Notes under the pieces: model-generated
What the model saw: only the letters and a program-made list of their open reading frames with translations
Database searches by the model: none
What the model was told of the DNA's origin: nothing
Source: Rhodanobacteraceae bacterium
Lineage (GTDB): Bacteria > Pseudomonadota > Gammaproteobacteria > Xanthomonadales > SZUA-5
Assembly: GCA_016713135.1 (NCBI GenBank)
Contig: JADJPR010000023.1
Coordinates: 668,427-732,426 of the forward strand
DNA: 64,000 bases
Direction of reading: 5' to 3'
Shown here: positions 14,794 through 52,134 of the stretch, piece after piece
How positions within the stretch are numbered: position 1 is the first letter of the stretch
Layout of the letters: the number at the start of each line of letters is the position of its first letter
Made by a program: the position numbers and the translations under genes

Positions 14794-14957
14794 GACGCAA
14801 AGGACGCAAAGGGGAGAAGAAAGGACGCAAAGGAAAGCAGGCGGGAAGCCGATCGGACCAGCCGCTCGCTGCATCTGCTTCCCTTGCTGCAACTGCTCCC
14901 CCGCTCCAATGGCTTCCTTCGTGTCCTTGCTTGCTGTTTTTTGCGTCCTTTGCGTCC
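14794..14957. repeat. oligomer-armed hairpin element (unit GACGCAAAG / CTTTGCGTC) inside the kdp operon
   Basis: Left arm: GACGCAAAG at 14794, 14803 and 14824. Right arm: CTTCGTGTC...TTTTGCGTC CTTTGCGTC, ending ~14957. It occupies most of the 243-nt kdpB-kdpC gap. Confidence 0.8.
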
Positions 14958-14992
14958 CACGCTCTTCAATTAACCGATCACGAGGCAACCCG

Positions 14993-15580
14993 ATGAACAC
15001 TCAAGCAGTACTCGACACCCGCGGCGGCGGCCTGCGCGCGGCGCTGGTGTTTGCCGCGCTGGCGATCGCGCTGACGGGCCTCGCCTACCCGGTCGGCGCC
15101 ACCCTGCTCGGTGGCTGGCTGTTCTCGCAGCAGGCGCGCGGCAGCCTGATCGAGCGGGATGGCCGCGTGGTCGGCTCGGCTCTGGTCGCGCAGCCCTTCG
15201 CCGATGCGCGCTACTTCGCGCCGCGCCCTTCGGCCGCCGGCTACAACCCGGTGGGTGCCGCCGGCAGCAACTGGGGCGCGTCCAACCCGGCTTTGCGTGA
15301 GCGCATGGCCGCCGAGGCCGCGGCGATCGCCGCGCGCGAAGGCGTGATCGCGAGCGAACTGCCGGCAGACCTCGTCAGCGCCTCCGGATCCGGCCTCGAT
15401 CCGCACATCACCCCGGCCGGCGCACAGGCGCAGGCGCCGCGGGTGGCGCGGGCACGCGGGATTCCCGAGGACCAGGTGCTGGCACTGATCGACGCGCATA
15501 CCGAGCCGCCGATGCTCGGCTTCTACGGTGGCGCGCGCGTCAACGTGCTGCAACTGAACCTGGCGCTGGACGCGCGCTGA
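14993..15580 (+). CDS. kdpC: K+-transporting ATPase subunit C (195 aa)
   Basis: MNTQAVLDTRGGGLRAALVFAALAIALTGLAYPV...SASGSGLDPHITP is KdpC-like. The ATG at 14993 lies inside ORF 14792-15580. Confidence 0.9.
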   Translation: MNTQAVLDTRGGGLRAALVFAALAIALTGLAYPVGATLLGGWLFSQQARGSLIERDGRVVGSALVAQPFADARYFAPRPSAAGYNPVGAAGSNWGASNPALRERMAAEAAAIAAREGVIASELPADLVSASGSGLDPHITPAGAQAQAPRVARARGIPEDQVLALIDAHTEPPMLGFYGGARVNVLQLNLALDAR

Positions 15581-15582
15581 CC

Positions 15583-18920: not shown

Positions 18921-19009
18921 CGCGCCTTGCAGGGGTCAGCGCGATCTGCCGCCGCGGCCACGGAGCCACGGCGCCGGGAAAGGACTCCGGTGCGCCTTTG
19001 CAGCCCGGG

Positions 19010-20697: not shown

Positions 20698-21396
20698 TCA
20701 AGACTTCTTGGCGGCTGGCTTCTTTGCCGGCGCCTTGGTGGCAGGCGCCTTCTTGGCCGGAGCCGCCTTCGCTGCAGGCTTCTTCGCCGGCGCCGCCTTG
20801 GCGGCCGGCTTCGCTGCAGCCTTGGCAGGCGCCTTGGCTGCGGGCTTCTTCGCCGGAGCCGCCTGCTTCGCCGGGGCCTTGGCTGCTGGCGCTGCCTTCT
20901 TCGCCGGGGCCTTGGCCGCTGGCGCTGCCTTCTTCGCCGGGGCCTTGGCCGCTGGCGCTGCCTTCTTCGCCGGAGCCTTGGCTGCCGGCGCCGCCTTCTT
21001 GGCCGGGGCCTTGGCCGGCTGTCCGGTCACCTTGGCAGCTGCGGCCTTGGCCTTGTCCACCGCCTTACCCACTTCCGCCTTGGCCTTTGCAACGGCCTTC
21101 TTCACCGCCTTGACCTTCGGCGCGGCGGCCTTCTCGGCTTTGGCCACGGTCTTCTTGGCAGCCTTCTTGACGTCAGCCACCTCCTTCTTGACCGCCTTGG
21201 TCACTTCGGCAGCCTTGGCTTCGACCGCCTTCTTGGCCGCACCGACTTTCTTCGCCGCAGCCTTCTTCACCGCCGCCACCTTGGATTCGGCCGCTGCAAC
21301 CGCTTCCTTGCCTTCCGCGATCAGCTTCTCGCCAATTGCCTCGGCCTTGTCTTTCAGCTCTTCGATCTTGCCCGCAATACCCTGATCACCGCTCAT
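20698..21396 (-). CDS. histone H1-like / AlgP-like Ala-Lys-Pro repeat nucleoid protein (232 aa)
   Basis: MSGDQGIAGKIEELKDKAEAIG... is followed by (APAKKAAPAAK)n. GAGGGAG lies 8 nt upstream of the ATG at the complement of 21394-21396. The rest of ORF 20698-21756 overlaps nrdJa and was discarded. Confidence 0.75.
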   Translation of the reverse strand: MSGDQGIAGKIEELKDKAEAIGEKLIAEGKEAVAAAESKVAAVKKAAAKKVGAAKKAVEAKAAEVTKAVKKEVADVKKAAKKTVAKAEKAAAPKVKAVKKAVAKAKAEVGKAVDKAKAAAAKVTGQPAKAPAKKAAPAAKAPAKKAAPAAKAPAKKAAPAAKAPAKKAAPAAKAPAKQAAPAKKPAAKAPAKAAAKPAAKAAPAKKPAAKAAPAKKAPATKAPAKKPAAKKS

Positions 21397-21443
21397 GACG
21401 ACCACTCCCTCGCTCAAGTCAGCGCCCGCCATGGGCGCGGTTC

Positions 21444-23591
21444 CTAGAACTTGCCGTAATAGCCTTCCTTCAGCGCATCGAACAGATTGGCGGCGGTATG
21501 GATCTCGCCGTCGTACTCGATTTCCTCGTTGCCCTTGACTTCGACCACGCTGCCGTCTTCGAGTTCGAAGCGGTAGAGGGTGTTCTCCAGATCCTGCTCC
21601 TTGACCAGCACGCCCTGGAAGGCGGCCGGATTGAAGCGGAACGTGGTGCAGCCCTTCAGCCCCTGCTTGTGCGCGTAGAGGTAGATGTCCTTGAAGTCCG
21701 CGTAAGGGTAGTCGGTGGGCACATTGGCGGTCTTGCTGATCGAGGAATCCACCCACTTCTGTGCCGCAGCCTGGATGTCGACGTGTTCTTTCGGGCTGAT
21801 GTCGTCGGCGGCGACGAAATAATCCGGCAGCTTTTCGTCGGCCTTCTCGCTGTAGGGCATCGCCTTCGGGTTGACCAGGTGACGGTAGGCCAGCAGCTCA
21901 AAGCTGTAGACCTCGACCTTTTCCTTGGACTTCTTGCCCTCGCGGATCACGTTGCGCGAGTAATGGTGCGCGAACGAGGGCTCGATGCCGTTGCTGGCGT
22001 TGTTGCCGATCGACAGCGAGATGGTGCCGGTCGGCGCGATCGAGCTGTGGTGGGTGAAGCGCGCGCCGGCCTCGGTCAGATCCTGGCACAGCTCCGGCGC
22101 AACGGTGGCCAGGCGCTGCATGTAGCGCGAGTACTTGCCGTGCAGCACGCGGCCGGGGATGCGGTCGCCCATCTGGTAGCCGTCGGCCACCATTTCCGGG
22201 CGCTTGCGCAGCATGTCGCCGGTCACCTCGAAGTCCTCGAGCATGATCGGGGCCGGGCCCTTTTCCTGCGACAGCGCGAGCGCTTCCTCCCAGCCGGCGA
22301 CCGCCATGTCGCGCGCCACCTGCTCGGTGAACTCGCAGGATTCGGGCGTGCCGTAACGCATCTTCAGCATCGTCAGGGTGGAGCCGAGGCCGAGGAAACC
22401 CATGCCGTGGCGGCGCTTGCGCATGATCTCGTTGCGCTGGCCTTCCAACGGCAGGCCGTTGACCTCGACCACGTTGTCCAGCATGCGCGTGAACACGCGC
22501 ACCACTTCCTTGTATTCCTCCCAGTCGAAGCGCGCGCGGCTGGTGAAGGGCTCGCGCACGAACTTGGTCAGGTTGACCGAGCCGAGCAGGCAGGAACCAT
22601 AAGGCGGCAACGGCTGCTCGCCGCAGGGATTGGTCGCGCGGATCTGCTCGCACCACCAGTTGTTGTTCATCTCGTTGACGCGGTCGATCAGGATGAACCC
22701 CGGCTCGGCGAAGTCGTAGGTCGAGGTCATGATCATTTCCCACAGACCTTTCGCCCGGATCTTGCCGTAGATCTTGCAGGCGACCAGGCCATCGTCACGG
22801 CTGACGTAGTTGTGCTTCGTCGGCCACTCGCGCCAGACCACCTGCCTGGGATCGGTGACGTCGATCTCGTGCTGTTCCTTGACGTGCACCGGGAACACCA
22901 GCGGCCAGTCGCCATCGGTCTCCACCGCGTGGATGAACTCGTCGGTGATCAGCAGCGACAGGTTGAACTGGCGCAGGCGACCGTCCTCGCGCTTGGCCTT
23001 GATGAACTCCTTGACGTCCGGATGCGAGACATCGAAGGTGCCCATCTGCGCGCCGCGGCGGCCGCCGGCGCTGGACACGGTGAAACACATCTTGTCGTAG
23101 ATATCCATGAAGGACAGCGGTCCGGAGGTATAGGCGCCGGCACCCGACACGTAGGCGCCGCGCGGGCGCAGCGTCGAGAATTCGTAGCCGATGCCGCAGC
23201 CGGCCTTGAGCGTCAGCCCGGCCTCGTGCACCTTGGCCAGGATGTCGTCCATCGAGTCGCCGATGGTACCGGACACGGTGCAGTTGATCGTGCTGGTGGC
23301 CGGCTTGTGCTCGAGCGCGCCGGCATTGGAGGTGATGCGGCCGGCGGGAATGGCGCCACGACGCAGCGCCCAGAGGAAGCGCTCGTACCAGTAGGCACGC
23401 TTTTCCGGCGTGGCTTCGGCATCCGCGAGCGCCCGCGCGACACGCTTGAAGCTGTCGTCCATGGTGCGGTCGATCGGATCGCCCAACTTGCTCTTCAGGC
23501 GGTACTTCTTGTCCCAGATGTCCTGGGATGCAGGCTGCAACGGGATGTCCACAATGTCATTGCGTACCGCTTCGAGACGAACGGTGCTCAT
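21444..23591 (-). CDS. nrdJa: adenosylcobalamin-dependent (class II) ribonucleotide reductase large fragment (715 aa)
   Basis: MSTVRLEAVRNDIVD... with the catalytic region ATNPCGEQPLPPYGSCLLGS, and full-length class II RNR similarity. Confidence 0.95.
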   Translation of the reverse strand: MSTVRLEAVRNDIVDIPLQPASQDIWDKKYRLKSKLGDPIDRTMDDSFKRVARALADAEATPEKRAYWYERFLWALRRGAIPAGRITSNAGALEHKPATSTINCTVSGTIGDSMDDILAKVHEAGLTLKAGCGIGYEFSTLRPRGAYVSGAGAYTSGPLSFMDIYDKMCFTVSSAGGRRGAQMGTFDVSHPDVKEFIKAKREDGRLRQFNLSLLITDEFIHAVETDGDWPLVFPVHVKEQHEIDVTDPRQVVWREWPTKHNYVSRDDGLVACKIYGKIRAKGLWEMIMTSTYDFAEPGFILIDRVNEMNNNWWCEQIRATNPCGEQPLPPYGSCLLGSVNLTKFVREPFTSRARFDWEEYKEVVRVFTRMLDNVVEVNGLPLEGQRNEIMRKRRHGMGFLGLGSTLTMLKMRYGTPESCEFTEQVARDMAVAGWEEALALSQEKGPAPIMLEDFEVTGDMLRKRPEMVADGYQMGDRIPGRVLHGKYSRYMQRLATVAPELCQDLTEAGARFTHHSSIAPTGTISLSIGNNASNGIEPSFAHHYSRNVIREGKKSKEKVEVYSFELLAYRHLVNPKAMPYSEKADEKLPDYFVAADDISPKEHVDIQAAAQKWVDSSISKTANVPTDYPYADFKDIYLYAHKQGLKGCTTFRFNPAAFQGVLVKEQDLENTLYRFELEDGSVVEVKGNEEIEYDGEIHTAANLFDALKEGYYGKF

Positions 23592-23786
23592 CAAAACTGC
23601 CTCCCCAGGCATCAGGCGCGTTTTTCTTGTGTGTTGCGGTGTTGCAACTAGTTCTTGATGCCAGTTGGCAGCTCAACCACAACATCTAGTGGTGCGACGG
23701 GCGCGAAGTTTGGAATCGCCGGGGCGGGACGTCAAGCGACTTCGTGCCGGAAGTGTGACCCATTGCTGCGCGAGCCGATGAGCGGA

Positions 23787-23954
23787 TGGTTGTGGGTTGT
23801 GGGTTGTGGGTTGTGGGTTGTGGGTTGTGGGTTCTGGGTTCTGGGTTGTGGGTTCTGGGTTGTGGGTTCTGGGTTGTGGGCAGAAAAGCCGGCCGCCGAC
23901 TGCATTCGCTTCGGCCTTTGCCGCCCACAACCCAGAACTCACAACCCCAGAACC
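23787..23954. repeat. oligomer-armed hairpin element (GGGTTGT/GGGTTCT heptamers vs ACAACCC/AGAACCC)
   Basis: The left arm has ~13 heptamers (23787-23881). The loop is AGAAAAGCCGGCCGCCGACTGCATTCGCTTCGGCCTTTGCC. The right arm (23923-23954) has only ~4 heptamers. The element ends 5 nt from the stop of the GGDEF-EAL gene. Confidence 0.85.
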
Positions 23955-26917: not shown

Positions 26918-27108
26918 CGGCCTCCCTGCTCCGGCCCCGAGGATGCCCCAGCGGAGTCTCCGCCCGCTGCAAGTGTATGCCGATGCGCACCGTTTTTGCC
27001 GACCTCGCGCCGGCGACATGTCGATATGACGACGGCGACTGGTGTCGCCCCCGTCCGCTGGGGCACCATGCGGGTCCAATCTTCGATCGCACCGGTCCGG
27101 AGCGCGCC

Positions 27109-28074: not shown

Positions 28075-28085
28075 ACGCGACGGGG

Positions 28086-28317
28086 CCGGTTAAACGCGGA
28101 GACGCAGAGAGCACGGAGGAAAGCCGCAGAGAAGGAGCGAGAGTGTTTCCGGGGAGACTCGAGCCTGCAGCACCTGCCGCGAACCCCGCCCACGTCTCTT
28201 GCTCGTCTCTGCGTCCTCCGCGTCTCTGCGTTGAATGGCCCCCGGCACTCCCGAGCCAAAACCTGACGCTCCTCCGCGGCTTTTCTCCGCGTCCTCCGCG
28301 TCTCCGCGTTTGACCGG
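28086..28317. mobile_element. MITE-like element with CCGGT(T/C)AAACGCGGAGACGC termini, copy 1
   Basis: Left end CCGGTTAAACGCGGAGACGCAGAGAG, right end ...CTCCGCGTCTCCGCGTTTGACCGG. The interior is rich in GCGGAG/GCAGAGA oligomers and their complements. It has the same termini as 51812-52134. Confidence 0.8.
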
Positions 28318-28329
28318 CCCGGCCGCGCC

Positions 28330-41293: not shown

Positions 41294-41455
41294 AACGGAG
41301 GAAGTGAAACGTGAAACGTAAAACGTCAATGGGCGGCGGCTCTGATTGACGTTTTACGTTTGACGTTTGACCTTTTCGCACCGCAACGTCAAAGGACCGC
41401 GCCTCCGATTGACGTTTCACGTTTCACGTTTGACCTTTGATTCCTCACGTTTGAA
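41276..41455. repeat. oligomer-armed hairpin element (GTGAAAC / GTTTCAC heptamers) with one left and two right arms
   Basis: Left arm: GTGAGAC GTGAAAC GTGAAAC ... GTGAAAC GTGAAAC GTAAAAC GTCAAT (41276-41330). Right arm 1: ATTGAC GTTTTAC GTTTGAC GTTTGAC (41345-41371). Right arm 2: ATTGAC GTTTCAC GTTTCAC GTTTGAC ... (41408-41455). Confidence 0.85.
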
Positions 41456-41485
41456 ATTCCCAGAGATTCCGAGCAGCCCCACCCC

Positions 41486-42229
41486 ATGCCCATCCGCCCC
41501 CTGATCGTCATCCCGGTCTACAACCACGAACGCGGCCTGGCGACGATGCTCGACGGGCTGCGCGCGAGTGGGTTGCCATGCCTGCTGGTGGATGACGGCA
41601 GCGAGCCGGGCTGCGCGGCGGCGCTGGCGGAGATGGCGCGGACACACGCCGGCTGGCTGAGTCTGGTCAGCCGCGCCGAGAACGGCGGCAAGGGCGCGGC
41701 GCTGATGACCGGCTTTGCCGAGGCGGCGCGGCGCGGCTACAGCCATGTGCTGCAGATCGACGCCGATGGCCAGCACGACACCGCGGACATCCCGCGCTTC
41801 CTGGCCGCGGCGCAGGCCAATCCGCAGGCGCTGATCCTGGGCCAGCCGCGCTACGACCAGAGCGTGCCGACCGGGCGCCTGATCGGGCGCTACGTGACCC
41901 ATGTCTGGGTCTGGATCAACACGCTGAGCCTGGCGATTGCCGACACCATGTGCGGCTTCCGCGTCTATCCGCTGGCGCCGGTGCAGGCCGTGCTGGCGCA
42001 GGAAAAGCTCGGCTCGCGGATGGATTTCGACACCGAGATCGTGGTCCGCCTGCATTGGCGCGGCGTGCGTGTGATCAATCTGCCCACGCCGGTGCGCTAC
42101 CCTGCCGATGGCGTGTCGCACTTCAAGCTGTGGCTGGACAATTTGATGATCTCGCGCATGCATGCGCGACTTTTCTTCGGCATGTTGTGGCGTGCGCCGC
42201 GGCTGCTGTGGCGGCGGCTTGCCGGATGA
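41486..42229 (+). CDS. family 2 glycosyltransferase (247 aa)
   Basis: LIVIPVYNHERGL...LLVDDGSEPG...QIDADGQH are GT2 signatures. Confidence 0.85.
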   Translation: MPIRPLIVIPVYNHERGLATMLDGLRASGLPCLLVDDGSEPGCAAALAEMARTHAGWLSLVSRAENGGKGAALMTGFAEAARRGYSHVLQIDADGQHDTADIPRFLAAAQANPQALILGQPRYDQSVPTGRLIGRYVTHVWVWINTLSLAIADTMCGFRVYPLAPVQAVLAQEKLGSRMDFDTEIVVRLHWRGVRVINLPTPVRYPADGVSHFKLWLDNLMISRMHARLFFGMLWRAPRLLWRRLAG

Positions 42230-43153
42230 GCGGGGAGCGCCACTGGGCCGACATCGGTGAGGCCGGCTTCGTCGGCGGCATGCGTTTCCTGGTGTGGACC
42301 TACCGCTGGTTCGGGCGGCTGCCGTTCCGCATCGCGCTGTACCCGGTGCTCGGCTACTTCTTCCTGGTGCGCGGCATCGCGCGGCGGGCGTCGCTGGAAT
42401 ACCTCGGGCGGCTGCAGGCGGCGCACGCGGTGTTCGTCCGGCCGCCCGGCCTAGGCACCGCCTGGCGCCACTTCCTGAGCTTCGCGGATGCCCTGCTCGA
42501 CAAGGTGCTGGCGATGGGCGGCGCCTTCACCCTCGAGCAGATCACGATGGACAACCAGCAGGTGGTGCTGCCGCTGCTGGATGCCGGGCGCGGAGCGGTG
42601 ATGCTGACCGCGCACGTGGGCAACCTCGAGGTCTGCCAAGCGCTGGCCGAACTGCAGCCCCGGCTGCTTCTGAACATCCTGGTGCACCACGTCAACGCGC
42701 AGAAGTTCAACCGCTTGCTGGAACGCCAGGGCGCCAGCCAGGTGCGCCTGATCGAGGTGACCGAGATCACGCCGGCCACGGCGATGGAGCTGGAGCGGCG
42801 CGTGGCCGCGGGCGAGATGCTGGTGATCGCCGCCGACCGCCTGACCCCGGGCAGCGCGCGGCGTTCGCTGGCGGTGCCTTTCCTCGGGCCACGCCGCGCA
42901 CTTCCCGCAAGGCCCGTTCATCCTCGCCAGCCTGCTGCGCTGCCCGGTGTTCCTGGTTTTCTGCACCCGCCGCGCCGGCTGCTACCACATCGATTTCGAA
43001 ACCTTCGCCGAGCGCATCGAGCGGGTCCGCGGCGCGCCGGACGCGGGCCTGCGTCCGTGGATCGAGCGTTACGCCGCACGCGTCGAGCAGCAATGCCGCC
43101 AGGCGCCGCTGCAGTGGTTCAATTTCTATCCCTTCTGGGCGCACCCCGGTTGA
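42226..43153 (+). pseudogene. LpxL/HtrB-like lipid A-type acyltransferase interrupted by a +1 frameshift near 42889
   Basis: The N-terminal part (MSGERHWADIGEAGF...LTAHVGNLEV...SLAVPFLG) is in the 42226 frame. The C-terminal part (HAAHFPQGPFILASLLRCPVFLVFCTRRAGCYHIDFE...QWFNFYPFWAHPG) is in the frame of ORF 42947-43153. One extra C in CGGGCC (42885-42890) separates them. This may be a sequencing error. Confidence 0.55.
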
Positions 43154-43223
43154 CCGCTGCTTTCTCGCGCCACCGCCGCGCCCGGCTATCCTCCGTCCTT
43201 CACGCCGTGCCCACACCTCCCCG

Positions 43224-44768
43224 ATGCCCGACCGCAACCCGACGCCTGTCCGCTTCGACGGCCAGCCATTGACCATCGAAGACATCGTCGCGCTGGCCCG
43301 CCGGCAACGCCCGGCGGTGCTCGACGACAGCGAGCCCCTGCGCCAGCGGATCCAGGCCGGCGCTGATTTCCTCGACCGCGTGCTGGCCGAGGACGGCGTG
43401 ATCTACGGCGTGACCACCGGCTACGGCGATTCCTGCACCGTCAGCATCCCGACCGGCCTGGCGCTGGAGCTGCCGCAGCGGCTGTACACCTACCACGGTT
43501 GCGGCGCGGGGGCGCTGCTGACGCGCGAACAGACCCGCGCGGTGCTGGCCACGCGCCTGAATTCGCTGGTCCAGGGCTATTCCGGCGTGAGCTGGCGCCT
43601 GCTGCAGCAGCTCGCCGGCCTGCTCCGGCACGATGTGCTGCCGCGTATTCCGTCCGAAGGATCGGTCGGCGCCAGCGGCGACCTGACCCCACTCAGTTAT
43701 GTCGCCGCCGTGCTGTGCGGCGAGCGTGAAGTGTGGAAGGGCGAAGGCGCCGAGCCGGCGGCCGATGCGCTCGCCGCTGCGGGCCTTGCGCCGTTGAAGC
43801 TGCGGCCGAAGGAAGGCCTGGCGGTGATGAACGGCACCGCGGTGATGACCGCGCTGGCCTGCCTGGCGCACGCGCGCGCCGACTACCTGTCGCGCCTGGC
43901 CACCCGCATCACCGCGCTGGCGGTGGTGGTGATCGACGGCAATCCGCACCACTACGACGAGCGCCTGTTCGCGGTGAAGCCGCATCCGGGACAGATGCGC
44001 GTGGCCGCGCGGCTGCGCGCGGACCTGGCCGCCGACCGCCCGCCGCGCAATGAGCAGCGCCTGCAGGATCGCTATTCGCTGCGCTGCGCGCCGCACGTGC
44101 TGGGCGCGCTGGAAGATGCGCTGCCCTGGCTGCGAACGCTGATCGAAACCGAGCTCAACAGCGCCAACGACAACCCGATCATCGATCCGGATGACCTGCG
44201 CGTGCTCCACGGCGGCCATTTCTACGGCGGTCACATCGCGATGGCGATGGACACCCTGAAGTGCCAGGTGGCCAACCTGGCCGATCTGCTCGACCGCCAG
44301 ATGGCGCTGCTGGTGGATGCGCGCTACAACCACGGGTTACCGGCCAACTTGTCCGGCGCCAGCGGCAGCCGACGGCCGATCAACCACGGCCTGAAGGCGC
44401 TGCAGATCAGCGCCTCGGCCTGGACCGCCGAAGCGCTCAAACAGACCCTGCCGGCCTCGGTATTCAGCCGCTCCACCGAGTGCCACAACCAGGACAAGGT
44501 GAGCATGGGCACGATCGCCGCGCGCGACTGCCTGCGCGTGCTGGAACTGGCCGAGCAGGTCGCCGCGGCGCTGCTGGTCACGGTGCGCCAGGGCATCGAA
44601 CTGCGCCTGAAACTGACGCCCGGCAGTACGCTGCCGACAGCGCTGGCGACGATGCAGCAGGATCTCGCGGCCCGGATCGGGTTCATTGACGAGGACCGCG
44701 CGCTCGACCGCACCCTGGTCGAACTGATGGCCGCGATCGATGCCCGCGCGTGGCCACTGTATGACTGA
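43224..44768 (+). CDS. MIO-dependent aromatic amino acid ammonia-lyase (HAL/TAL/PAL family, 514 aa)
   Basis: YGVTTGYGDS..., GSVGASGDLTPLS (Ala-Ser-Gly MIO triad), NDNPII. The ATG at 43224 lies inside the 824-aa ORF 42294-44768. Confidence 0.9.
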   Translation: MPDRNPTPVRFDGQPLTIEDIVALARRQRPAVLDDSEPLRQRIQAGADFLDRVLAEDGVIYGVTTGYGDSCTVSIPTGLALELPQRLYTYHGCGAGALLTREQTRAVLATRLNSLVQGYSGVSWRLLQQLAGLLRHDVLPRIPSEGSVGASGDLTPLSYVAAVLCGEREVWKGEGAEPAADALAAAGLAPLKLRPKEGLAVMNGTAVMTALACLAHARADYLSRLATRITALAVVVIDGNPHHYDERLFAVKPHPGQMRVAARLRADLAADRPPRNEQRLQDRYSLRCAPHVLGALEDALPWLRTLIETELNSANDNPIIDPDDLRVLHGGHFYGGHIAMAMDTLKCQVANLADLLDRQMALLVDARYNHGLPANLSGASGSRRPINHGLKALQISASAWTAEALKQTLPASVFSRSTECHNQDKVSMGTIAARDCLRVLELAEQVAAALLVTVRQGIELRLKLTPGSTLPTALATMQQDLAARIGFIDEDRALDRTLVELMAAIDARAWPLYD

Positions 44769-45183
44769 GACGCCCGCGGCCTGGCAGGCCGACACCCTGA
44801 TCGACCCGGCCTTTTTCGATATCGACCCGATGGAGATCGTCTGGCACGGCAACTATGTGAAATACCTCGAGGTGGCGCGCTGCACCCTGCTCGACCAGAT
44901 CGACTACAACTACTACCAGATGAAGGACTCCGGCTACGCCTGGCCGATCGTGGACCTGCACCTGCGCTACGTGCAGCCGGTGCGCTTCCGCCAGAAGATC
45001 CGCATCAACGCGAAGATCATCGAGTGGGAGCACCGCCTGAAGATCCACTACCGCATCTGCGACGACGCCAGCGGCCGCAAGCTCACCACCGGCCACACGG
45101 TGCAGGTGGCGGTGGACATCCGCAACGGCGAACTGCAGTTCGAGACCCCGCCGGTGTTGCGGCGGAAGCTGGGGCTGGCGTGA
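44761..45183 (+). CDS. 4HBT/YbgC-type hot-dog thioesterase (140 aa)
   Basis: DIDPMEIVWHGNYVKYLEVARCTLLDQI is typical of acyl-CoA/ACP thioesterases. The start overlaps the lyase stop. Confidence 0.8.
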   Translation: MTETPAAWQADTLIDPAFFDIDPMEIVWHGNYVKYLEVARCTLLDQIDYNYYQMKDSGYAWPIVDLHLRYVQPVRFRQKIRINAKIIEWEHRLKIHYRICDDASGRKLTTGHTVQVAVDIRNGELQFETPPVLRRKLGLA

Positions 45184-45188
45184 GCCGC

Positions 45189-46043
45189 ATGGCGCCGGGC
45201 ATCGCGCAGCGTGATCGACGCGCTCCGGGTTGCGCTGATGCACGCGCTGCAGGGTTGTGGGTTGTGGGTTGTGGGTTGTGGGCAGCGCGACCGGCGCGAG
45301 ATCCCGGGCGCAGGGCAACTTGGCTGGCCGCCATCTTCGCACTCGCCAGTGCCCTTGCTCCTGCCTTTGCTGCCCAGAACCCAGAACCCACAACCCAGAA
45401 CCCGCTTATCGCTGCCCACAACCCACAATCCACAACCCAGAACCCGCATATCGCTGCCCAGAACCCACAACCCACAACCCAGAACCCGCTGACCGCTGCC
45501 ACGGACCTCCTCACCACCATCGCCGCCCGCATCCAGCCCGCCGCGGTGCTGCGCGGCGAGTTCGTGCAGGAGCGCACGCTGGTGGGCTTCGCCAAACCGC
45601 TGCGCTCCACCGGGCGCTTCGTGGCGGCGCGCGGGCGCGGGGTGCTGTGGATCACGCAATCGCCGTTTCCGGGAGAACTGGTGATCACCGAGGGCGCGAT
45701 CCGCGAGCGGGTGGACGGCAGCGAGAGCGTGGTCGTCGATGCCAGCCGGGAACCTGCGCTGCAGCAAATCAATCGCGTGCTGCTGGCGCTGCTGCAGGGC
45801 GATCTCGCCACCCTGCGCGAGCAGTTCAGCGTGGCTGGCCAGGACGATTCCCAAGGTTGGGCGCTGACGCTGACGCCGCAGCCGCCGTTGAGCGAGGCCA
45901 TCGGCCTGGTCGAACTGGCCGGAAACAGCCAGGTCGAAGTGGTCAGCATCCGTGAGCACAACGGCGATCTCAGCCGGGTCGAGTTCCATGCGCTGTCCGG
46001 CGGCGACGCGCTGACCGCCGACGAAGCGGCGCGCCTTGACTGA
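45189..46043 (+). CDS. LolA-like outer-membrane lipoprotein-carrier family protein; its N-terminus is read through a hairpin repeat element (284 aa if the ATG at 45189 is used)
   Basis: The conserved body is DLLTTIAARIQPAAVLRGEFVQERTLVGFAKPLRSTGRFVAARGRGVLWITQSPF... The only upstream in-frame ATG is 45189. The signal-like stretch RRATWLAAIFALASALAPAFAA lies in the loop of the repeat element. Confidence 0.65.
   Translation: MAPGIAQRDRRAPGCADARAAGLWVVGCGLWAARPARDPGRRATWLAAIFALASALAPAFAAQNPEPTTQNPLIAAHNPQSTTQNPHIAAQNPQPTTQNPLTAATDLLTTIAARIQPAAVLRGEFVQERTLVGFAKPLRSTGRFVAARGRGVLWITQSPFPGELVITEGAIRERVDGSESVVVDASREPALQQINRVLLALLQGDLATLREQFSVAGQDDSQGWALTLTPQPPLSEAIGLVELAGNSQVEVVSIREHNGDLSRVEFHALSGGDALTADEAARLD
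45252..45494. repeat. oligomer-armed hairpin element (GGGTTGT heptamers; right arm = 3 x 42 nt) inside the LolA-like reading frame
   Basis: Left arm: GGGTTGT x4 (45252-45283). Right arm 45369-45494 = GCTGCCCAGAACCCAGAACCCACAACCCAGAACCCGCTTATC and two variants. Related to 23787-23954. Confidence 0.85.
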
Positions 46044-48357
46044 ATCCGCGCCGCCGCGCCGCCACTGGCTCGCCTGGGCCTGGGCGCTGCTGGTGCTGGG
46101 TTGTGCGGCGCACCTGGCGCTGGTCGGATCGCGCGGCGAGTGGCCGGTCGACACCGACGTGATGGCGCTGCTACCGCAGGACACGCGCCACCCCGCGGCC
46201 GAACAGGCGCTGGCGCGCTTGAGCGATGCCGCCTCGCGACGGGTGGTCGTGGTCCTGGCCGCCGACGACTTTGCCCGCGTGCGCGCGGCGGCCAGCGAGA
46301 TCCAGGTGTTACTCGCGGGCAGCGACAGCCCACTGCAGGCGGCGGCGGGCAACACCGGCGCCAGCCGCGAGTTGATCGAGTTCTACGCGCCCTGGCGCGA
46401 CCGTCTGCTCGCCCGCAGCGACCGCGAGCGCCTGGCGCAGCAGAGTCCCGAGCAGATCGCGCGGGCCGCGGTGCAGCGGCTGTATCGCCCGGGGCCGGGC
46501 ATGCGGGCGCTCGGGCCGCTGGAGGATCCGCTCGACAGCTACGCCGCCTGGCTCGCCGAGCGCGCCGGCGCCACCCGCTTGCGCCCGCGCGAAGGCTGGC
46601 TGTGGCAGCAGGCCGATGGGCACGAGTTGATCGTGCTGCCCTTCGAACTGCGCGCCACCGCGCTCAGCGTCGCGGCGCTGCAGCAGTTGCAGCCGCGCCT
46701 CACCGCCGCGCGCGCCGCGGCGGCGGCCCAGGGCGTGGAGATGCTCAGCGCCGGCGTGCCGGTGCATGCCGCCGCCGCCGCGCTGCAGGCCGAGCGCGAG
46801 ATGAGCCTGATCGGTGCCGGCGCGGCGCTCGGGATCGTGGTGCTGATGCTGCTGTGTTTCCGCCGCCTGCGGCCGATGCTGCTGGTGCTGGGATCGGTGG
46901 GTGTCGGCCTGCTGGTCGCGCTGTCGCTCTGCCTGTTGCTGTTCGAGCGCGTGCACCTGCTGACGCTGGTGTTCGGCGCCAGCCTGGTCGGCGTCGCCGA
47001 GGACTACGCCATCCACTGGCTCAGCGCGCGGGCGCTGGCGCCGCCCGGCGAGGCCGAGCGCACGACGCGCGCGCTGGTGCCCGGGCTGTGGCTGGCCTTC
47101 GCCACCTCCGCGCTCGGCTACCTGGCGCTGGCGCTGGCGCCTTTCCCCGGCTTGCAGCAGATGGCGCTGTTCTCGATCGCAGGACTCGCCGGCGCGCTGG
47201 TCTCGGTGCTGCTGTGGATGCCGCAGCTGGTCGGCCGCGAACCGACGGCCACCGCGATCAGCGTGTGGCTGGCCGGCTCCTTCCGCCGCTGGCCCCGGCT
47301 GCGCGCCACGCCGACATCGCTCGGCATCCTCGGGCTGCTGCTCCTGCTGGCGTCAGCCGGCGCCGCGCGCCTGCGCAGCAGCGACGATTTGCGCGCGCTG
47401 CAATCCTCGCCGCCGGCGCTGGTTGCGGAGCAGGCGCGCATCGGCGCGTGGCTGGCCGAGCCCAGCCCGGTGCAGTTCTACCTGGTACAGGGGCGCGACC
47501 ACGCCGAACTGTTGGCGCGCGAGGAAGCGCTGGTCGTGAAGCTGGACGCGCTGCGGCAGGAGGGCTTCATCGACGGTCATCGTGCGCTGTCCGACTGGGT
47601 CCCTTCGCCCACCCGGCAGGCGCAGGACCGCACCTTGTGGCAACCCGCGGCTGGCGCTGCGCGCGCCGCCATCGCAGCCGAGCTGGGCGGCAGCGGCGCA
47701 GCCGCGAGGCCGCTGGCCGACGCTCCGCTGACTCTCGACGAATGGCTCGCCAGCCCGGCGGCGCTGGCGCTCCGCCCGCTGTACCTCGGCCAGCTCGACG
47801 GCGCGTTCCAGAGCGTGGTCCAGGTCCATGGGCTCGACTCGGCGGCACAGCTGCCGCGCCTCGCTGCCCAGGCCCAGGCGCTGCCGGGCGTAACCTGGGT
47901 CGATCGCATCGGCGACTATTCGCGGCTGCTGCGCGAGTACCGGATCGCCATGATCCAGGTGCTCGGCGCCAGCATCGTGCTGGTCGCGGTCCTGCTGGCC
48001 TGGCGCTACCGACGCCAGGCCTGGCGGGTTTTGCTGCCGACGCTGGTCGCGATGCTCGCGGTGCTGGCCTGGCTCGGCTGGCGCGGCGAGCCGCTGCAAC
48101 TGTTCCACGTGCTCGGCCTGATCGTGCTGCTCGGCATGGCCGACGACTACGGCATCTTCCTGCTCGAAGCGGATGCCGCCGGACCCGCGTGGCTCGGCGT
48201 GGTGCTCGGCGCGGTCAACACCCTGCTGGCCTTCGGCCTGCTCGCCTTCTCGGGCACGCCGGCGCTGGCGGCTTTCGGGTTGACGCTGCTGATCGGAATT
48301 GCCGTGGCCTGGTTGCTGGCGCCAACCGTGGCGCCCACTCCGCAGCGCCCGGGTTGA
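46036..48357 (+). CDS. MMPL/RND-superfamily exporter (773 aa)
   Basis: Two blocks of TM helices separated by large periplasmic domains. TTG start per the ORF track, overlapping the LolA-like stop. Its position matches the MMPL gene of aryl-polyene clusters. Confidence 0.85.
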   Translation: MTESAPPRRHWLAWAWALLVLGCAAHLALVGSRGEWPVDTDVMALLPQDTRHPAAEQALARLSDAASRRVVVVLAADDFARVRAAASEIQVLLAGSDSPLQAAAGNTGASRELIEFYAPWRDRLLARSDRERLAQQSPEQIARAAVQRLYRPGPGMRALGPLEDPLDSYAAWLAERAGATRLRPREGWLWQQADGHELIVLPFELRATALSVAALQQLQPRLTAARAAAAAQGVEMLSAGVPVHAAAAALQAEREMSLIGAGAALGIVVLMLLCFRRLRPMLLVLGSVGVGLLVALSLCLLLFERVHLLTLVFGASLVGVAEDYAIHWLSARALAPPGEAERTTRALVPGLWLAFATSALGYLALALAPFPGLQQMALFSIAGLAGALVSVLLWMPQLVGREPTATAISVWLAGSFRRWPRLRATPTSLGILGLLLLLASAGAARLRSSDDLRALQSSPPALVAEQARIGAWLAEPSPVQFYLVQGRDHAELLAREEALVVKLDALRQEGFIDGHRALSDWVPSPTRQAQDRTLWQPAAGAARAAIAAELGGSGAAARPLADAPLTLDEWLASPAALALRPLYLGQLDGAFQSVVQVHGLDSAAQLPRLAAQAQALPGVTWVDRIGDYSRLLREYRIAMIQVLGASIVLVAVLLAWRYRRQAWRVLLPTLVAMLAVLAWLGWRGEPLQLFHVLGLIVLLGMADDYGIFLLEADAAGPAWLGVVLGAVNTLLAFGLLAFSGTPALAAFGLTLLIGIAVAWLLAPTVAPTPQRPG

Positions 48358-48426
48358 TCGCACGACCGTGCTCCGGGCGGGCATCCAAGGCATCATCCTC
48401 ACCCCGAATTCACACGCGCGCCGTCC

Positions 48427-49659
48427 ATGACCCTGCCCCGGATCGACACCGAGTCCCTGATCATCGGCGCAGGTCCCTCGGGCGCGGTGGCGGCGGCAAT
48501 GCTGCGGCGGGCCGGTCGCGAGGTGCTGGTGCTGGAGCGCGAGTCCTTCCCGCGCTTCTCGATCGGCGAGAGCCTGTTGCCGCAGAGCATGCAGTACATC
48601 GAGGAGGCCGGCCTGCTGCGCGACGTGGTCGAGGCCGGCTTCCAGTTCAAGAACGGCGCCAGCTTCGTCTGGGGCGAGCGCCAGACCGCCTTCGATTTCC
48701 GCGACAAGTTCTCCCAAGGCTGGGGCACCACCTACCAGGTGCAACGTGCGCGCTTCGACCAGGTGCTGGCGGATGGCGCCGCGCGGATGGGCGCCGACGT
48801 GCGCTATCGCCATGAGGTGCTGGCGCTGGCGCCCGCGCGCGGCGCCTCGCTGGCGCGCGTGCGTGGGCCCGACGGCAGCGAGTTCGAGGTGGCAGCGCGC
48901 TTCGTGCTGGATGCCAGTGGATTCGGCCGCACCCTACCGCGGTTACTGGGCCTGGAGCGCCCGAGCGACTTCCCGGCGCGCGGCGCGATCTTCACCCACA
49001 TCCGCGACGGCGTGATGCCGGGCGCCTTCGACCGCGACAAGATCCGCATCACGGTGCACCCGCGCCATGTGGATGTGTGGTACTGGCTGATCCCCTTCTC
49101 GGACGGCCGATGCTCGATCGGCGTGGTTGCCCGCCGCGAGTTCCTCGAACAGTACGCCGGCAGCGAAACCGAACGCCTGCGCGCGCTGGTCGATGAGGAT
49201 CCCGCGTTGCGCGCCCTGCTCGCCAACGCCGGATGGGACACGCCCGCGCGCCAGATCGTCGGCTACGCGAGCAATGTGTCCGCGCTGTGGGGACCGGGCT
49301 ATGCCCTGCTCGGCAACGCCGGCGAGTTCCTCGACCCGGTGTTCTCCTCCGGCGTGACCATCGCGGTGAAGTCCGCCAGCCTCGCGGTGGCGGCGATCCG
49401 ACGCGAGATCGCGGGCGAGACGGTGGATTGGGAAGCGGATTACGCGCGTCCGCTGCGCGCGGGTGTCGATTGCTTCCGCGCCTTCGTCGAAGCCTGGTAC
49501 GCCGGCAGCTTCCAGAAAATCATCTTCCACGAACCGCAGCAGGCGGCGATCCGGCGGATGATCTCGTCGATCCTCGCCGGCTACGCCTGGGACAGCGCCA
49601 ATCCCTATGTGGCCGAGCCGCAACGCCGGCTGCGGGTGCTCGAGGGCCTGTGCGAATGA
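48427..49659 (+). CDS. FAD-dependent halogenase (410 aa)
   Basis: IIGAGPSGAVAA (GxGxxG), DVWYWLIPF (WxWxIP, a flavin-halogenase hallmark) and FLDPVFSSGV. Confidence 0.8.
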   Translation: MTLPRIDTESLIIGAGPSGAVAAAMLRRAGREVLVLERESFPRFSIGESLLPQSMQYIEEAGLLRDVVEAGFQFKNGASFVWGERQTAFDFRDKFSQGWGTTYQVQRARFDQVLADGAARMGADVRYRHEVLALAPARGASLARVRGPDGSEFEVAARFVLDASGFGRTLPRLLGLERPSDFPARGAIFTHIRDGVMPGAFDRDKIRITVHPRHVDVWYWLIPFSDGRCSIGVVARREFLEQYAGSETERLRALVDEDPALRALLANAGWDTPARQIVGYASNVSALWGPGYALLGNAGEFLDPVFSSGVTIAVKSASLAVAAIRREIAGETVDWEADYARPLRAGVDCFRAFVEAWYAGSFQKIIFHEPQQAAIRRMISSILAGYAWDSANPYVAEPQRRLRVLEGLCE

Positions 49660-50198
49660 GGGGGCCGACGCTGCTGGCCGCCACCCTGCTGCTTGCGGCC
49701 TGTGCAAACGCGCCGCGCCGGCCGTCGCCATCGCCGGCCCTGCGCCTGGCGCCGGCCGCGCTCGATGCCAGGCTGTCGCTGCAGCAGCGATTGACGGTCA
49801 GCCAAGGCGCGCGCGTCCAGCGCGCGGACGCGCTGCTGGAAGTCGATCGCGACGCCCTGCGCCTGGTTCTGCTGGTGGGACCCAGGCGCATGCTGACGCT
49901 GGTGTTCGACGGCGAGTCCATCGTGCAACAGCGCGATCCGGCCCTGCCCGAGGCCCTGGCGGGCGAGCGCTTCGTCGACGACATCCAGCTGGCCTACTGG
50001 CCCGCGGCGGCGATCCGCGCGGCCCTGCCGCCGGGATGGACTCTCGACGAATCGCCGCTGCGACGCACCCTGCGCCAGGCTGGCGCGGCGGCCGTCGAAG
50101 TGCGCTATTCGCAAACGCCGCGCTGGCTCGGGCACATCGAGATCCACCACCTGGGCCAGGACTACCGGCTCGCCATCGATTCGGCGGCGCAGCCATGA
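49656..50198 (+). CDS. lipoprotein, DUF3261-like (180 aa)
   Basis: MRGPTLLAATLLLAACAN is a lipobox. ATGA overlap with the halogenase. Its position matches the DUF3261 gene of aryl-polyene clusters (from memory). Confidence 0.7.
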   Translation: MRGPTLLAATLLLAACANAPRRPSPSPALRLAPAALDARLSLQQRLTVSQGARVQRADALLEVDRDALRLVLLVGPRRMLTLVFDGESIVQQRDPALPEALAGERFVDDIQLAYWPAAAIRAALPPGWTLDESPLRRTLRQAGAAAVEVRYSQTPRWLGHIEIHHLGQDYRLAIDSAAQP

Positions 50199-51382
50199 GC
50201 GCGCAGGTCTACCTGCACGGACTCGGGCTGGTGTGCGCGCTGGGCGCGGATGCCGCGAGTGCCCGACAGGGCTTGCTGCGCAGCGATACGCCCGGCGGTG
50301 TCGCGCCGACCGAGGCCTGCAGCCCCGGCCGCAGCCTGCACCTGGGCGTGGCTGCCGGCGCGTGGCGCGCACGCGAGGACTGGCCGCTGCCGCTGCGCAG
50401 CCGCAACAACGCCTTGCTCGATGGCGCGCTGGCAGGGCTGCAGCCAACCCTGGCGTGCGCGTTGCCAGGGGTGGATCCGGCGCGCGTAGGCGTGGTCATC
50501 GGCAGCAGCACCTCGGGGATCGCCGAGGGCGAGGACGCAGTGGCGGCGCTGGTGCGCGAGGGGCGGATGCCGCGCGGATTTCACTTCGGGCAGCAGGATT
50601 TGTCTTCGGCCGCGCGCTTCGTTGCGGCGCAAACCGGCGCGCGCGGGCCAGCGATGACTGTGTCGACCGCGTGCTCTTCCGGCGCGAAGGCGCTGGCGAG
50701 CGCCGCGCGCTGGCTGCGTACCGGCCTGTGCGACGCGGTCATCGCCGGCGGCGCAGACAGCCTGTGCGCCTTCACCGTGGCCGGTTTCGCCGCGCTGGAA
50801 TCGGTCAGCGCCGAGCGCTGCAACCCGTCCAGCCGCAACCGCCGCGGCATCAACATCGGCGAAGGCGCCGCACTGTTCCTGCTGACGCGCAAGCCGGGCC
50901 CGGTGCGCCTGTCGGGCTGGGGCGAGAGCTCGGACGCGCACCATATCTCGGCGCCCGAGCCGCAGGGACGCGGGGCGGAAGCGGCGATGCGCGAGGCGCT
51001 CCGGCGCGCTGGCCTGGCGGCGGAGGACATCGATTACATCAACCTGCACGGCACCGCGACCGCGCACAACGACCTGGCCGAGAGCCTCGCCGTGCAGCGG
51101 GTCTTCGGCGAACGCCCGTGGTGCAGTTCGACCAAGCCACTGACCGGACACGCGCTCGGCGCCGCCGGCGCGATCGAGGCGGGCTTCTGCTGGATGCTGC
51201 TGCAGGACAATCCGGACGGCCGGCTACCGCCGCACTGGTGGGACGGCGCGGCCGACCCGGCGCTCGCGCCGCTGCGCCTGGTGCCGCCGGGCGCGCGCCT
51301 GGGGCGCGCACCGCGCCATCTGCTCAGCAACTCCTTCGCCTTCGGCGGCAACAACGCCTGCCTGCTGCTGTCCGCGGAATAG
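50195..51382 (+). CDS. beta-ketoacyl-ACP synthase (395 aa)
   Basis: VSTACSSGAKAL (active Cys), LHGTATAHND and TGHALGAAGAIE (His/His). Confidence 0.9.
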   Translation: MSAQVYLHGLGLVCALGADAASARQGLLRSDTPGGVAPTEACSPGRSLHLGVAAGAWRAREDWPLPLRSRNNALLDGALAGLQPTLACALPGVDPARVGVVIGSSTSGIAEGEDAVAALVREGRMPRGFHFGQQDLSSAARFVAAQTGARGPAMTVSTACSSGAKALASAARWLRTGLCDAVIAGGADSLCAFTVAGFAALESVSAERCNPSSRNRRGINIGEGAALFLLTRKPGPVRLSGWGESSDAHHISAPEPQGRGAEAAMREALRRAGLAAEDIDYINLHGTATAHNDLAESLAVQRVFGERPWCSSTKPLTGHALGAAGAIEAGFCWMLLQDNPDGRLPPHWWDGAADPALAPLRLVPPGARLGRAPRHLLSNSFAFGGNNACLLLSAE

Positions 51383-51384
51383 CC

Positions 51385-51819
51385 ATGCGCGCCTGCGAGA
51401 TCCCGATTGTCGAGCTTTTGCCGCATGCGCCACCGATGGTGTTGCTGGACCGCGTCGTCGACGCCGCCGACGAGCACCTGACCGCCTCCGTCACCCTGCG
51501 CAGCGACTCCGAGTTCTGCCGCGAGGGCCGCGTCGGCGCCTGGGTCGGCATCGAATACATGGCCCAGGCCGTCGCCGCCTGGTCGGGCTGGCAGGCCCGC
51601 CTGCGCGGGGAGCCGGTCAAGGTCGGCTTCCTGCTCGGCACCCGACGCTACGACGCCCTGCGCCCCGAGTTTCTGGTCGGCGAGACCCTGCTGGTATTCG
51701 TCGAGCGCGAATTCCAGGCCGACAACGGCCTCGCCCGCTTCCGCGCCGAGATCCGCTGCGGCGAGGAGCTGTGCGCGCAGGCCAGCATCAGCGTGTACGA
51801 GCCGGCCGGGGCCGGTTAA
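51385..51819 (+). CDS. hot-dog fold 3-hydroxyacyl-ACP dehydratase-like protein (144 aa)
   Basis: ELLPHAPPMVLLDRVV...GIEYMAQAVAAW. The stop TAA (51817-51819) lies inside the terminal inverted repeat of the element at 51812-52134. Confidence 0.75.
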   Translation: MRACEIPIVELLPHAPPMVLLDRVVDAADEHLTASVTLRSDSEFCREGRVGAWVGIEYMAQAVAAWSGWQARLRGEPVKVGFLLGTRRYDALRPEFLVGETLLVFVEREFQADNGLARFRAEIRCGEELCAQASISVYEPAGAG

Positions 51820-52134
51820 ACGCGGAGACGCAGAGGGCGCGGAGAAAAGCGCCGAGAAGGCAGGAGGGTTCGGCGGCCGGAAACGGGTTGTCTCGCGGGC
51901 CGGACAAAGAGCAGGACGCAGAGAACGCAGAGGAGAAGCAGAGAGATCACAGAGGGAGCGGGCCATTCCTGTGCCCGCTGGAACGTCGTTCTTTGCCTTC
52001 TCCGCGATCTCTCTGCCTTTCCTCTGCGCTCTCTGCGTCCTGCTTCGTCCTCGGTCCCCGGCGATGCCCGACCGTGCCCTGCCGCACCCTCTGCTGCTCT
52101 TCTCCGCGCTCTCTGCGTCTCCGCGTTTAACCGG
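51812..52134. mobile_element. MITE-like element with CCGGTTAAACGCGGAGACGCAGAG termini, copy 2
   Basis: Perfect 24-nt terminal inverted repeats. An internal second hairpin is built from GCAGAGA-type oligomers. It lies between the dehydratase and ketoreductase genes. Confidence 0.85.

Follow-up and report, generated by a model that had tools for sequence, protein, structure and literature searches.

Long microsatellites with units of 5-11 nt are abundant in some large GC-rich bacterial genomes, where their origin and role are a long-standing question. Cyanobacterial genomes carry heptamer repeats, the short tandemly repeated repetitive (STRR) sequences, as direct intergenic arrays for which slippage has been proposed as the source. 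The long simple sequence repeats (SSRs) of prokaryotes described by Mrazek and co-workers (5-11 nt; via PMC4679880 and PMC4692102) are intergenic, slippage has been proposed for them too, and Xanthomonas campestris is among the genomes richest in 5-11-nt repeats (PMC4679880, summarising earlier surveys). The closest described system is that of Xanthomonas, in which Rehm et al. 2015 (PMC4692102) reported 183-186 GGGAATC arrays per genome, 89-93% of them intergenic, and 70-75 convergent inverted GGGAATC pairs per genome that are able to form stem-loops. These arrays favour four units and vary in length between species, and no function, name or mechanism was found for them (PMC4692102); the later literature that we found only cites them. 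Here we analyze 64,000 nt of a Rhodanobacteraceae bacterium (GCA_016713135.1, contig JADJPR010000023.1, positions 668,427-732,426 of the forward strand; G+C 61-75% across the stretch), referred to below as the window, in which one design, (unit)n-loop-(reverse-complement unit)n, recurs at eight intergenic loci (E1 to E8) between 14.8 and 52.1 kb, giving about 13 hairpins plus extra arms. We interpret these, with a probability of roughly 0.55, as inverted-microsatellite hairpins that grow by slippage, whose complementarity is kept by selection or templated correction, and that are occasionally copied.

Since convergent GGGAATC pairs had been reported (PMC4692102), the architecture was already known for one unit, and the original prediction, made from the letters of this DNA, went too far in stating that it did not belong to a described class. 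Like the Xanthomonas repeats, the elements of the window are tandem heptamer arrays that are intergenic, lie near a neighbouring open reading frame (ORF) and are rare between divergent genes; like the Xanthomonas pairs, they place the G-rich array first on each strand, favour four units per arm (4+4 in E4, in the E5 hairpin E5e, and in the related contigs L085, L002 and L094) and vary between species at the same junction. Unlike in Xanthomonas, no GGGAATC unit occurs in the window, and the units are 7-9 nt long and mostly unable to form a G-quadruplex (G4); the GGGAATC-related units GGGACTC and CGGGATT are found in L010 and L036. Moreover, in contrast to the Xanthomonas description, nearly all arrays are paired here, loops and termini are family-specific, nesting, cassette arrays and coding use are seen, and a compensatory, concerted change of both arms can be shown. 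What is new is the range of units, the compensatory arm change, the G-first order across unit families, the nesting and cassettes, and the exaptation into coding sequence.

Other repeat classes resemble the elements in part. As with Mrazek-type long SSRs, several heptamer units may occur in one genome, but those are direct arrays, described without inverted pairing, arm complementarity or shared loops. Repetitive extragenic palindromes (REPs), together with bacterial interspersed mosaic elements (BIMEs) and the hairpin-forming REP doublets (REPINs), are likewise intergenic hairpins found within operons and between convergent genes, form many-copy sequence families without target-site duplication, occur in tandem mosaic arrays and have a likely effect at mRNA 3' ends similar to that of the present hairpins. 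However, REPs measure 20-40 nt, are non-periodic palindromes tagged by GTAG or CGTC and come with an associated RAYT transposase, whereas the arms here are periodic, 20-90 nt long and without a common tag; a separate CGTC-tagged REP-like family exists in this genome (6362-7210) and also sits in hairpin loops of L001 and L006. MITEs (miniature inverted-repeat transposable elements) are similarly small, non-coding and dispersed, with inverted ends and presence or absence at orthologous sites; unlike MITEs, the arms here are tandem arrays of variable length, target-site duplications are lacking and no insertion sequence (IS) element lies in the window. The contrast that had been drawn with REP and MITE families, in which structure would be conserved here while sequence changes, proved overstated, for each type is a sequence family in its own right.

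The elements, their families (A to F) and their neighbours, with gene assignments from Pfam, are as follows.

14794-14957: E1, a family A hairpin, GACGCAAAG/CTTTGCGTC, between kdpB (12710-14749, plus strand) and kdpC (14993-15580, plus strand).
23787-23954: E2, family D, about 13 GGGTTGT/GGGTTCT units against 4 of ACAACCC/AGAACCC.
28076-28327: E3, family C, a purine-rich nested hairpin flanked by the PALP gene (stop 28074) and phoQ (stop 28330), which converge on it.
29761-29858: E4, family B, (GAGGGCAC)4-loop-(GTGCCCTC)4, between phoP (29921-30601, minus strand) and phoQ (28330-29712, minus strand).
32979-34193: E5, a composite between a hypothetical gene and a CNNM gene, a family F hairpin with cassettes in its loop.
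32979-33008: outer left arm of E5, family F, GGTGTTG-like, beginning 1 nt past the upstream stop codon.
33009-33968, plus strand: cargo of E5, five cassettes made of a ~50-nt module (GGTGAGAGTCCCGGTCGCCCCTGGCGGTGCGCTTATTCGCGCATCGAAC), an A or B hairpin and a tail.
33082-33165 and 33460-33540: family A hairpins of the E5 cargo.
33247-33347, 33623-33724 and 33820-33922: family B hairpins of the E5 cargo.
33999-34193: right arms of E5, family F, three ACCAACACC-type arrays in a tandem unit of ~80 nt.
41271-41455: E6, family E, GTGAAAC/GTAAAAC against GTTTCAC/GTTTGAC, between the ApeI/AMP-ligase gene (39509-41293) and a GT2 glycosyltransferase gene (41486-42229).
45252-45494, plus strand: E7, family D, (GGGTTGT)4-loop-three right arms, between a thioesterase gene and a LolA-like gene (ORF to 46043).
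51811-52135: E8, family C, a nested hairpin of 325 nt between the ApeP dehydratase ORF and a ketoreductase gene (52183-52947).

All the loci of the original prediction are present at the coordinates given there, with arrays called by Tandem Repeats Finder (TRF) and inverted-repeat arms, although its "at least a dozen loci" come down to eight. Its central description, several units in one architecture, is borne out by at least six unit families of 7-9 nt within the 64 kb, and TRF recovered the tandem-oligomer arms: GACGCAAAG x2.1 at 14794 and TTTGCGTCC x2.0 at 14940 in E1, GAGGGCAC x4.1 at 29761 and CGTGCCCT x4.1 at 29826 in E4 (a unit found again at 33249, 33690 and 33822), GTGAAAC x7.3 at 41276 in E6 and GGGTTGT x4.4 at 45252 in E7. 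The purine-rich E3 and E8 (GCGGAGAC/GCAGAGA) depart from this description, with only a weak 8-nt periodicity. Arms are often unequal in copy number, as had been noted: E2 has GGTTGTG x13.3 at 23788-23880 against 4 units at 23926-23953, E6 has a single left region and two or three right arms, and the right arms of E7 lie inside a 42-nt repeat (x3.1, 45369-45500). In E5, the right-arm copies occupy 34000-34024, 34081-34108 and 34161-34193, and the left arm pairs with the last of them; the TRF periods of its cargo are 198 and 378.

Gene orientation around the loci is co-directional in seven cases, convergent in one and divergent in none, and the co-directional contexts kdpB|kdpC, phoP|phoQ, ApeI/AMP-ligase|GT2 and ApeP dehydratase|ketoreductase are as originally described. 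E2 lies 5 nt from the stop of a GGDEF-EAL gene (23960-27079, minus strand) and upstream of the RNR gene (21444-23612, minus strand). Distances to start or stop codons, put earlier at a few nt throughout, are mostly 0-63 nt and reach ~175 nt between E2 and the RNR start; this closeness is trivial, because the elements are inserted into spacers that are 8-30 nt long in relatives. The statement that elements supply the upstream stop codon holds for E6, which contains the ApeI/AMP-ligase stop (TGA 41291-41293) in its second unit, and for E8, which contains the ApeP stop (TAA 51817-51819) within its terminus GGTTAAAC, and fails for the PALP gene at E3. In L101, a terminus of the E3/E8 type (GGTTAAAC) supplies the phoQ stop.

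To place the elements in an evolutionary context, ~30 related contigs (labelled with L numbers) were compared, gathered via homologs of PhoQ, CNNM and LolA, exact PhoP matches and a GGDEF homolog. The nearest relatives of the window are uncultured Rhodanobacteraceae/Lysobacterales metagenome-assembled genomes (MAGs); PhoQ identity to the window is 80-91% in L001-L011 and ~55% in Dokdonella, Ahniella and Pseudomarimonas. L100 and L094 belong to one genome, and the L100 contig ends at the GGDEF stop. Exact-protein look-ups with the kdpC and GT2 products of the window returned no identical record, so the kdpB|kdpC junction was left out of the comparison for want of a kdpC match.

The inverted-repeat finder gave arms of 25-59 nt with 83-96% complementarity, and in RNA folding, a check proposed with the original prediction, all hairpins considered (12 of 12) were far more stable than their dinucleotide shuffles, with z from -3.2 to -16.8. 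E1 folds at -82.0 kcal/mol (z -6.0), E4 at -94.8 kcal/mol (z -14.8) and E8 at -238.6 kcal/mol over its 325 nt (z -16.8); z is -9.6 for E6 and -8.5 for E3, whose 59-nt arms are 83% complementary by the inverted-repeat finder. A multi-register hairpin detector, the tightened successor of a word-based version that was too noisy in GC-rich coding DNA, found 15 clusters in the window, while 20 third-order Markov simulations gave 0-1. Same-genus loci have ~14 true periodic hairpins in 271 kb, other Lysobacterales 3-4 in 1.29 Mb. The simulations, folding scores and densities together indicate that the hairpins are real and that the window is unusually dense in them. An origin by misassembly or chance is extremely improbable: repeats and palindromes do misassemble easily, and the identity of L096 to the window is mosaic, but more than 15 independent assemblies, made in different studies, have homologous elements at these junctions, L102 is collinear with the window over E3 and E4 at 96-98% identity, and the simulations yield next to no such clusters. 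On this count the elements are not assembly artefacts, a possibility raised when they were first noted. The Rfam query proposed at that time gave 0 matches over the whole window at the gathering threshold; an E-value search on E5 gave sub-threshold generic miRNA-hairpin matches and nothing else, and a tRNA/tmRNA scan gave no matches.

The evidence that pairing itself is maintained comes from orthologous sites, in which a change of unit sequence extends to every unit of one arm, with its complement appearing in the other arm. The clearest case is E7. In the window, L096 and L098 its arms consist of GGGTTGT and ACAACCC units, in L094 and L099 of CGGTTGT and ACAACCG units. In the ortholog alignment 89.4% of cells pair, against 22-49% with a slid partner, and seven pairs are altered on both sides; four of these lie at period 7, being G-C in the GGGTTGT group and C-G in the CGGTTGT group. 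The E7 loop encodes a LolA-like signal peptide, from which vertical inheritance of the element follows; every same-genus homolog has the element, and distant homologs lack it. The right arms are translated as AQNPEPTTQNPLIA x3 following the signal peptide, confirming that one element is translated, and a start codon can come from the left arm. The E2 site has GTTGTGG as its unit in the window, GTTGTCG in L002 and GTTGGTG in L106; the right arm matches in each, and the flank downstream is shared. At the E4 site the unit is GAGGGCAC or GGGGCAG, again with right arms that match in each. A further regularity is polarity: the 5' arm has more G than C in 13 of 13 informative unit types, representing 8 of 8 independent groups, whichever strand is read.

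These observations bear directly on the proposal, made for the Xanthomonas GGGAATC repeats, that such arrays are G-quadruplex regulatory repeats, in which case the hairpin layout would be incidental. Arrays of GAGGGCAC, GGGGCAC, GGGTTGT and GGGACTC do contain four GGG tracts, and four units per arm are the commonest number, as in PMC4692102. Eight unit types nevertheless have no GGG (GACGCAAAG, AGGACGCGA, GCGGAGAC, GTGAAAC, GGTGTTG, CGGTTGT, AGTGAGA and ACACGGAGC), and CGGTTGT, one of them, is still found as 4+4 units. The compensatory changes keep the pairing and not the G-tracts, GGG having become CGG in L094, L099 and L002. With GGG-less units and the GGG to CGG change, G-quadruplex formation is not the common factor, and we regard this explanation as very improbable.

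The comparison of orthologous junctions, also proposed with the original prediction, revealed empty sites and varying unit and arm numbers. The phoP|phoQ spacer is empty, at 8-30 nt, in L005 and L007-L011. It is filled by a family B hairpin in the window, L085 and L002 and by a decayed family B copy in L103 and L104, by the GGGGCAG 7-mer version in L100 and L101, by family A in L001 and L004, and in L006 by GGGGCAG/(CCCCGTG)9 with a REP doublet in the loop. An inversion of the E4 loop between the window and L085 was considered (reverse-complement score 6 against forward 4, shuffle maximum 5) and is not claimed. The phoQ/PALP spacer measures 31 nt in L002, family C orthologs of E3 occupy it in L100-L103 (with two left arms in L103), and other elements are found there in other relatives. 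Between hyp and CNNM, nine relatives have ~85 nt and the window has 1215 nt; L101 has a simple GGTGTTG (family F) hairpin without cargo, and L100 and L104 have several arms. Hairpins are long inherited at some junctions and gained or lost at others.

Length varies at the filled sites. The orthologous E2 site of L002 has CGGTTGT/GACAACC in 4:4 units, against 13:4 in the window, and that of L106 has three GGTGTTG-type hairpins. L094, L095 and L098 retain E6 between ApeI and GT2, in the form of one or two hairpins, the right arms of E7 number one, two or three among relatives, and family A orthologs in L001 and L004 differ in unit number and unit variants. These differences agree with the original suggestion of growth by slippage. 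At the E2 site of L106 (3235-3600), a 125-nt unit that joins the closing ~20 nt and the stop codon of the GGDEF-EAL gene to a GGTGTTG-type hairpin is present in three tandem copies, which shows the origin of layouts with one arm facing several.

Copies of the same type resemble one another beyond their units. In family B copies (E4, the E5 hairpins b, d and e, and L085) an imperfect unit recurs at one position and the loops share the motif GCAAGAGCC...GCGA...TTT, family A copies share TTGTCCGCAAAG termini, and E3 and E8 have 26-nt termini in common (E3 with GCCGGTTAAACGCGGAGACGCAGAG / ...CCGCGTTTGACCGGC). Because loops, termini and the imperfect unit are shared, each type is a sequence family copied between loci. 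Loops also take in further elements, such as the REP doublets nested in those of L001 and L006.

The cassettes of E5, whose tail is ATCAAT-N13-TTCGGTGAGAG, vary between strains. In the 98%-identical strain L102, the locus has two cassettes in another order and with a different A variant. In L096, with flanks 98-99.8% identical to the window, E8 ends at 51930 and runs on into a cassette 98% identical to window 33771-33966, so that its one cassette is at a locus other than E5. In L091, L093 and L085, a module with a family A hairpin lies beside a rhomboid gene, at a place where the window has ~35 nt. The ~50-nt module GGTGAGAGTCCCGGTCGCCCCTGGCGGTGCGCTTATTCGCGCATCGAAC (window 33009-33968, L091:820-880, L085:3975-4060, L096:7188-7382) is in every case followed by an A or B hairpin; its fold is no more stable than that of shuffles (z -0.6 to -1.1), and it gave no Rfam and no promoter-like match. 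Candidate roles are those of a binding site, a small gene and a recombination site. A match of the module to the rhomboid gene start (ATGTTCGGT) was judged coincidental. An integron attC site was likewise rejected: ATCGAAC and GTTCGGT are each one mismatch off the RYYYAAC...GTTRRRY core sites and are asymmetric about the hairpin, the interval between these core-like sites is ~45 nt, and no integrase occurs among the window ORFs scanned. As a separate observation, the identity of L096 to the window climbs along one metagenome contig from ~85% (44702-46540) to 98-99.8% (47747-51343), which reflects either inter-lineage recombination or chimeric assembly.

In the mechanism that we favour, that of inverted-microsatellite hairpins, replication slippage and tandem duplication would alter array length and homogenise the units within an arm, and a periodic stem would tolerate this because it can re-pair in any register. 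Complementarity between arms would be kept either by selection on the stem or by hairpin-templated strand switching. Such switching is known from single sites as quasipalindrome template-switch mutagenesis, a source of mutations studied in E. coli (the Ripley model); correction of this kind would explain arm-to-arm copying and the perfecting of imperfect palindromes, although it is not known as a means of maintaining a repeat family. Copies of one unit, loop and set of termini at several loci show that elements are dispersed to new spacers, which would happen by occasional copying, partly as module-plus-hairpin cassettes of ~190 nt.

Several points weigh against this interpretation. G.U pairs number 39 in the sense and 60 in the antisense orientation, and without a sense-strand excess selection at the RNA level is not supported. 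The E4 stems of the window and L085 are identical at 64 of 64 positions, including the imperfect unit, despite unalignable flanks and ~80-85% identity in phoQ, while L103 has a decayed copy; this pattern fits master-copy renewal or inter-locus conversion better than pure in-situ drift. The unrelated A and B units at one phoP|phoQ position need replacement or repeated insertion. E3 and E4 have the same length in L102, which is 97.6-98.5% identical over 12 kb, and differ by point substitutions only, so slippage is not fast at four-unit arms. The relatives are moreover MAGs or metagenome contigs, with L096 possibly chimeric, and the steps of the mechanism are inferred.

Some of these points would be natural consequences of a different origin, in which the hairpins are non-autonomous mobile elements (MITE-, REPIN- or IS200/IS605-PATE-like, the last being palindrome-associated transposable elements), trans-mobilised by a hairpin-recognising enzyme for each family. 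Periodic stems would then provide multiple enzyme-binding sites, and differences between genomes would record repeated insertion and replacement. Presence or absence at orthologous junctions, the family-specific termini, loops and conserved imperfect unit, the two unrelated families at phoP|phoQ, the nesting in loops, the 98%-identical cassette elsewhere in L096, and a cassette number and order that vary between ~98%-identical strains all fit this origin, as does CGTC, the tag of the REP sequences of this genus, within A, C and E units. The identical E4 stems between diverged flanks, together with the decayed L103 copy, give it real weight. Yet no target-site duplication or common target was seen at the boundaries of families A, B, C and F in filled against empty sites, and Pfam scans of ~30 window ORFs found no transposase. 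At least six unit families in 64 kb would demand many cognate enzymes, and at 7-9 nt the units would make short binding sites for a protein. Both E6 and E7 are stable across the genus; in E7, moreover, the arms switched unit type around a signal-peptide loop that stayed orthologous, which is therefore not replacement. On balance, mobility in this form seems unlikely, though well short of negligible.

As to consequences for expression, a very stable stem-loop without a U-tract would enter polycistronic transcripts and, judging by its likeness to REP/BIME, may act as a 3'-exonuclease barrier, an attenuator or an insulator. Under the slippage-and-correction reading, the G-first polarity may be upheld because Rho could load on a C-rich arm if that arm were transcribed first. 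Alternatively, the rule could stem from DNA-end processing after a cut at the hairpin tip. Hairpins lacking a U-tract have been proposed to terminate or attenuate transcription in some high-GC bacteria; if the elements were instead ordinary, selected examples of this kind, they would be periodic only incidentally. Their gene-end position, E3 between convergent genes, none of eight loci between divergent genes and the great stability of the stems suit this account, and past the GGDEF stop the 13 C-rich units of E2 would form an unpaired C-rich tract before the RNR promoter. However, right arms are followed by a T-run in none of the elements, the stems alone thus matching intrinsic terminators, and a terminator scan of E5 picked out small inner loops only. 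Several elements lie inside operons that need read-through (kdpFABC, phoPQ and the aryl-polyene cluster), relatives get by with the empty phoP|phoQ spacer, and there is neither an Rfam match nor a strand-specific G.U signal. We therefore hold this account to be improbable.

A more speculative possibility, unlikely in our estimate, is a hitherto undescribed self-renewing repeat system, in which arms would be repaired via the hairpin template and homogenised between loci, and cassettes moved by a dedicated hairpin-directed activity. DNA-end biology would in that case underlie the G-first geometry, which resembles a head-to-head fusion of two G-strand telomere arrays; for example, an SbcCD-type cut at the tip would expose the GT-rich strand to RecBCD in Chi orientation. 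Family F arms contain GCTGGTG and GTTGGTGG, which are near Chi octamers known from other bacteria.

For the study of long microsatellites, this lineage provides an unusually dense and varied set whose orthologous sites can be traced across identities of 80% to 98%. In this set, the basic unit is seen to be the paired hairpin form, and its pairing outlasts changes of unit, with G4 potential playing no common part. E2 (13:4), E4 (an empty versus a filled junction), E5 (strain-variable cassettes) and E7 (an arm turned protein linker) are concrete cases on which to measure slippage, template switching, the influence of hairpins on operon expression, and dependence on Rho. Genome annotation is affected as well, since the elements yield false ORFs, stop codons and extended N-termini.

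Elements E6-E8 are carried by an aryl-polyene/xanthomonadin-like cluster at 39500-54200, with genes for an ApeI-AMP ligase, GT2, an aromatic ammonia-lyase, a thioesterase, a LolA-like protein, an MMPL protein, a halogenase-like protein, a ketosynthase (KS), ApeP and a ketoreductase (KR). At the start of this region, a G-rich tract of 54 nt (37506-37559) is of the GGGGGCCCGGGGCGGGGG type and was scored as a G34 run by TRF.

Repeats of other kinds are also present. At 6362-7210, between prfC (4515-6368, plus strand) and an amino-acid permease gene (7196-8566, minus strand), a 123-bp unit is repeated x6.9 with 94% matches; it comprises two CGTC-tagged REP-like palindromes, GTGGGTTCGAACCTTGTTCGAACGC and GCGTCCGGACAAGGTCCGGACCCAC, and a CGAGGGC...GCCCTCG hairpin resembling the family B unit, and the array looks BIME-like. 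Two adjacent, ordinary MITE-like elements (60449-60601 and 60598-60850) have terminal inverted repeats of 29-31 nt and are bounded by CTAG; a 78%-identical copy of the second lies in L102 and L105 between the equivalents of window positions 36769 and 36798, where the window has none. The minus-strand ORF 20698-21756 contains tandem repeats of 30-33 nt at 20704-21017, in up to 4.8 copies with 92% matches, and probably encodes an Ala/Lys/Pro-rich repeat protein. Finally, positions 1-4500 have a G+C of 61-63% and include a PIN-domain ORF (3458-3838, minus strand) and, just upstream of the full prfC, an EF-Tu-type GTPase fragment (2471-3184, plus strand); the segment is possibly an island that was inserted and carries a duplicate of the 5' end of prfC.

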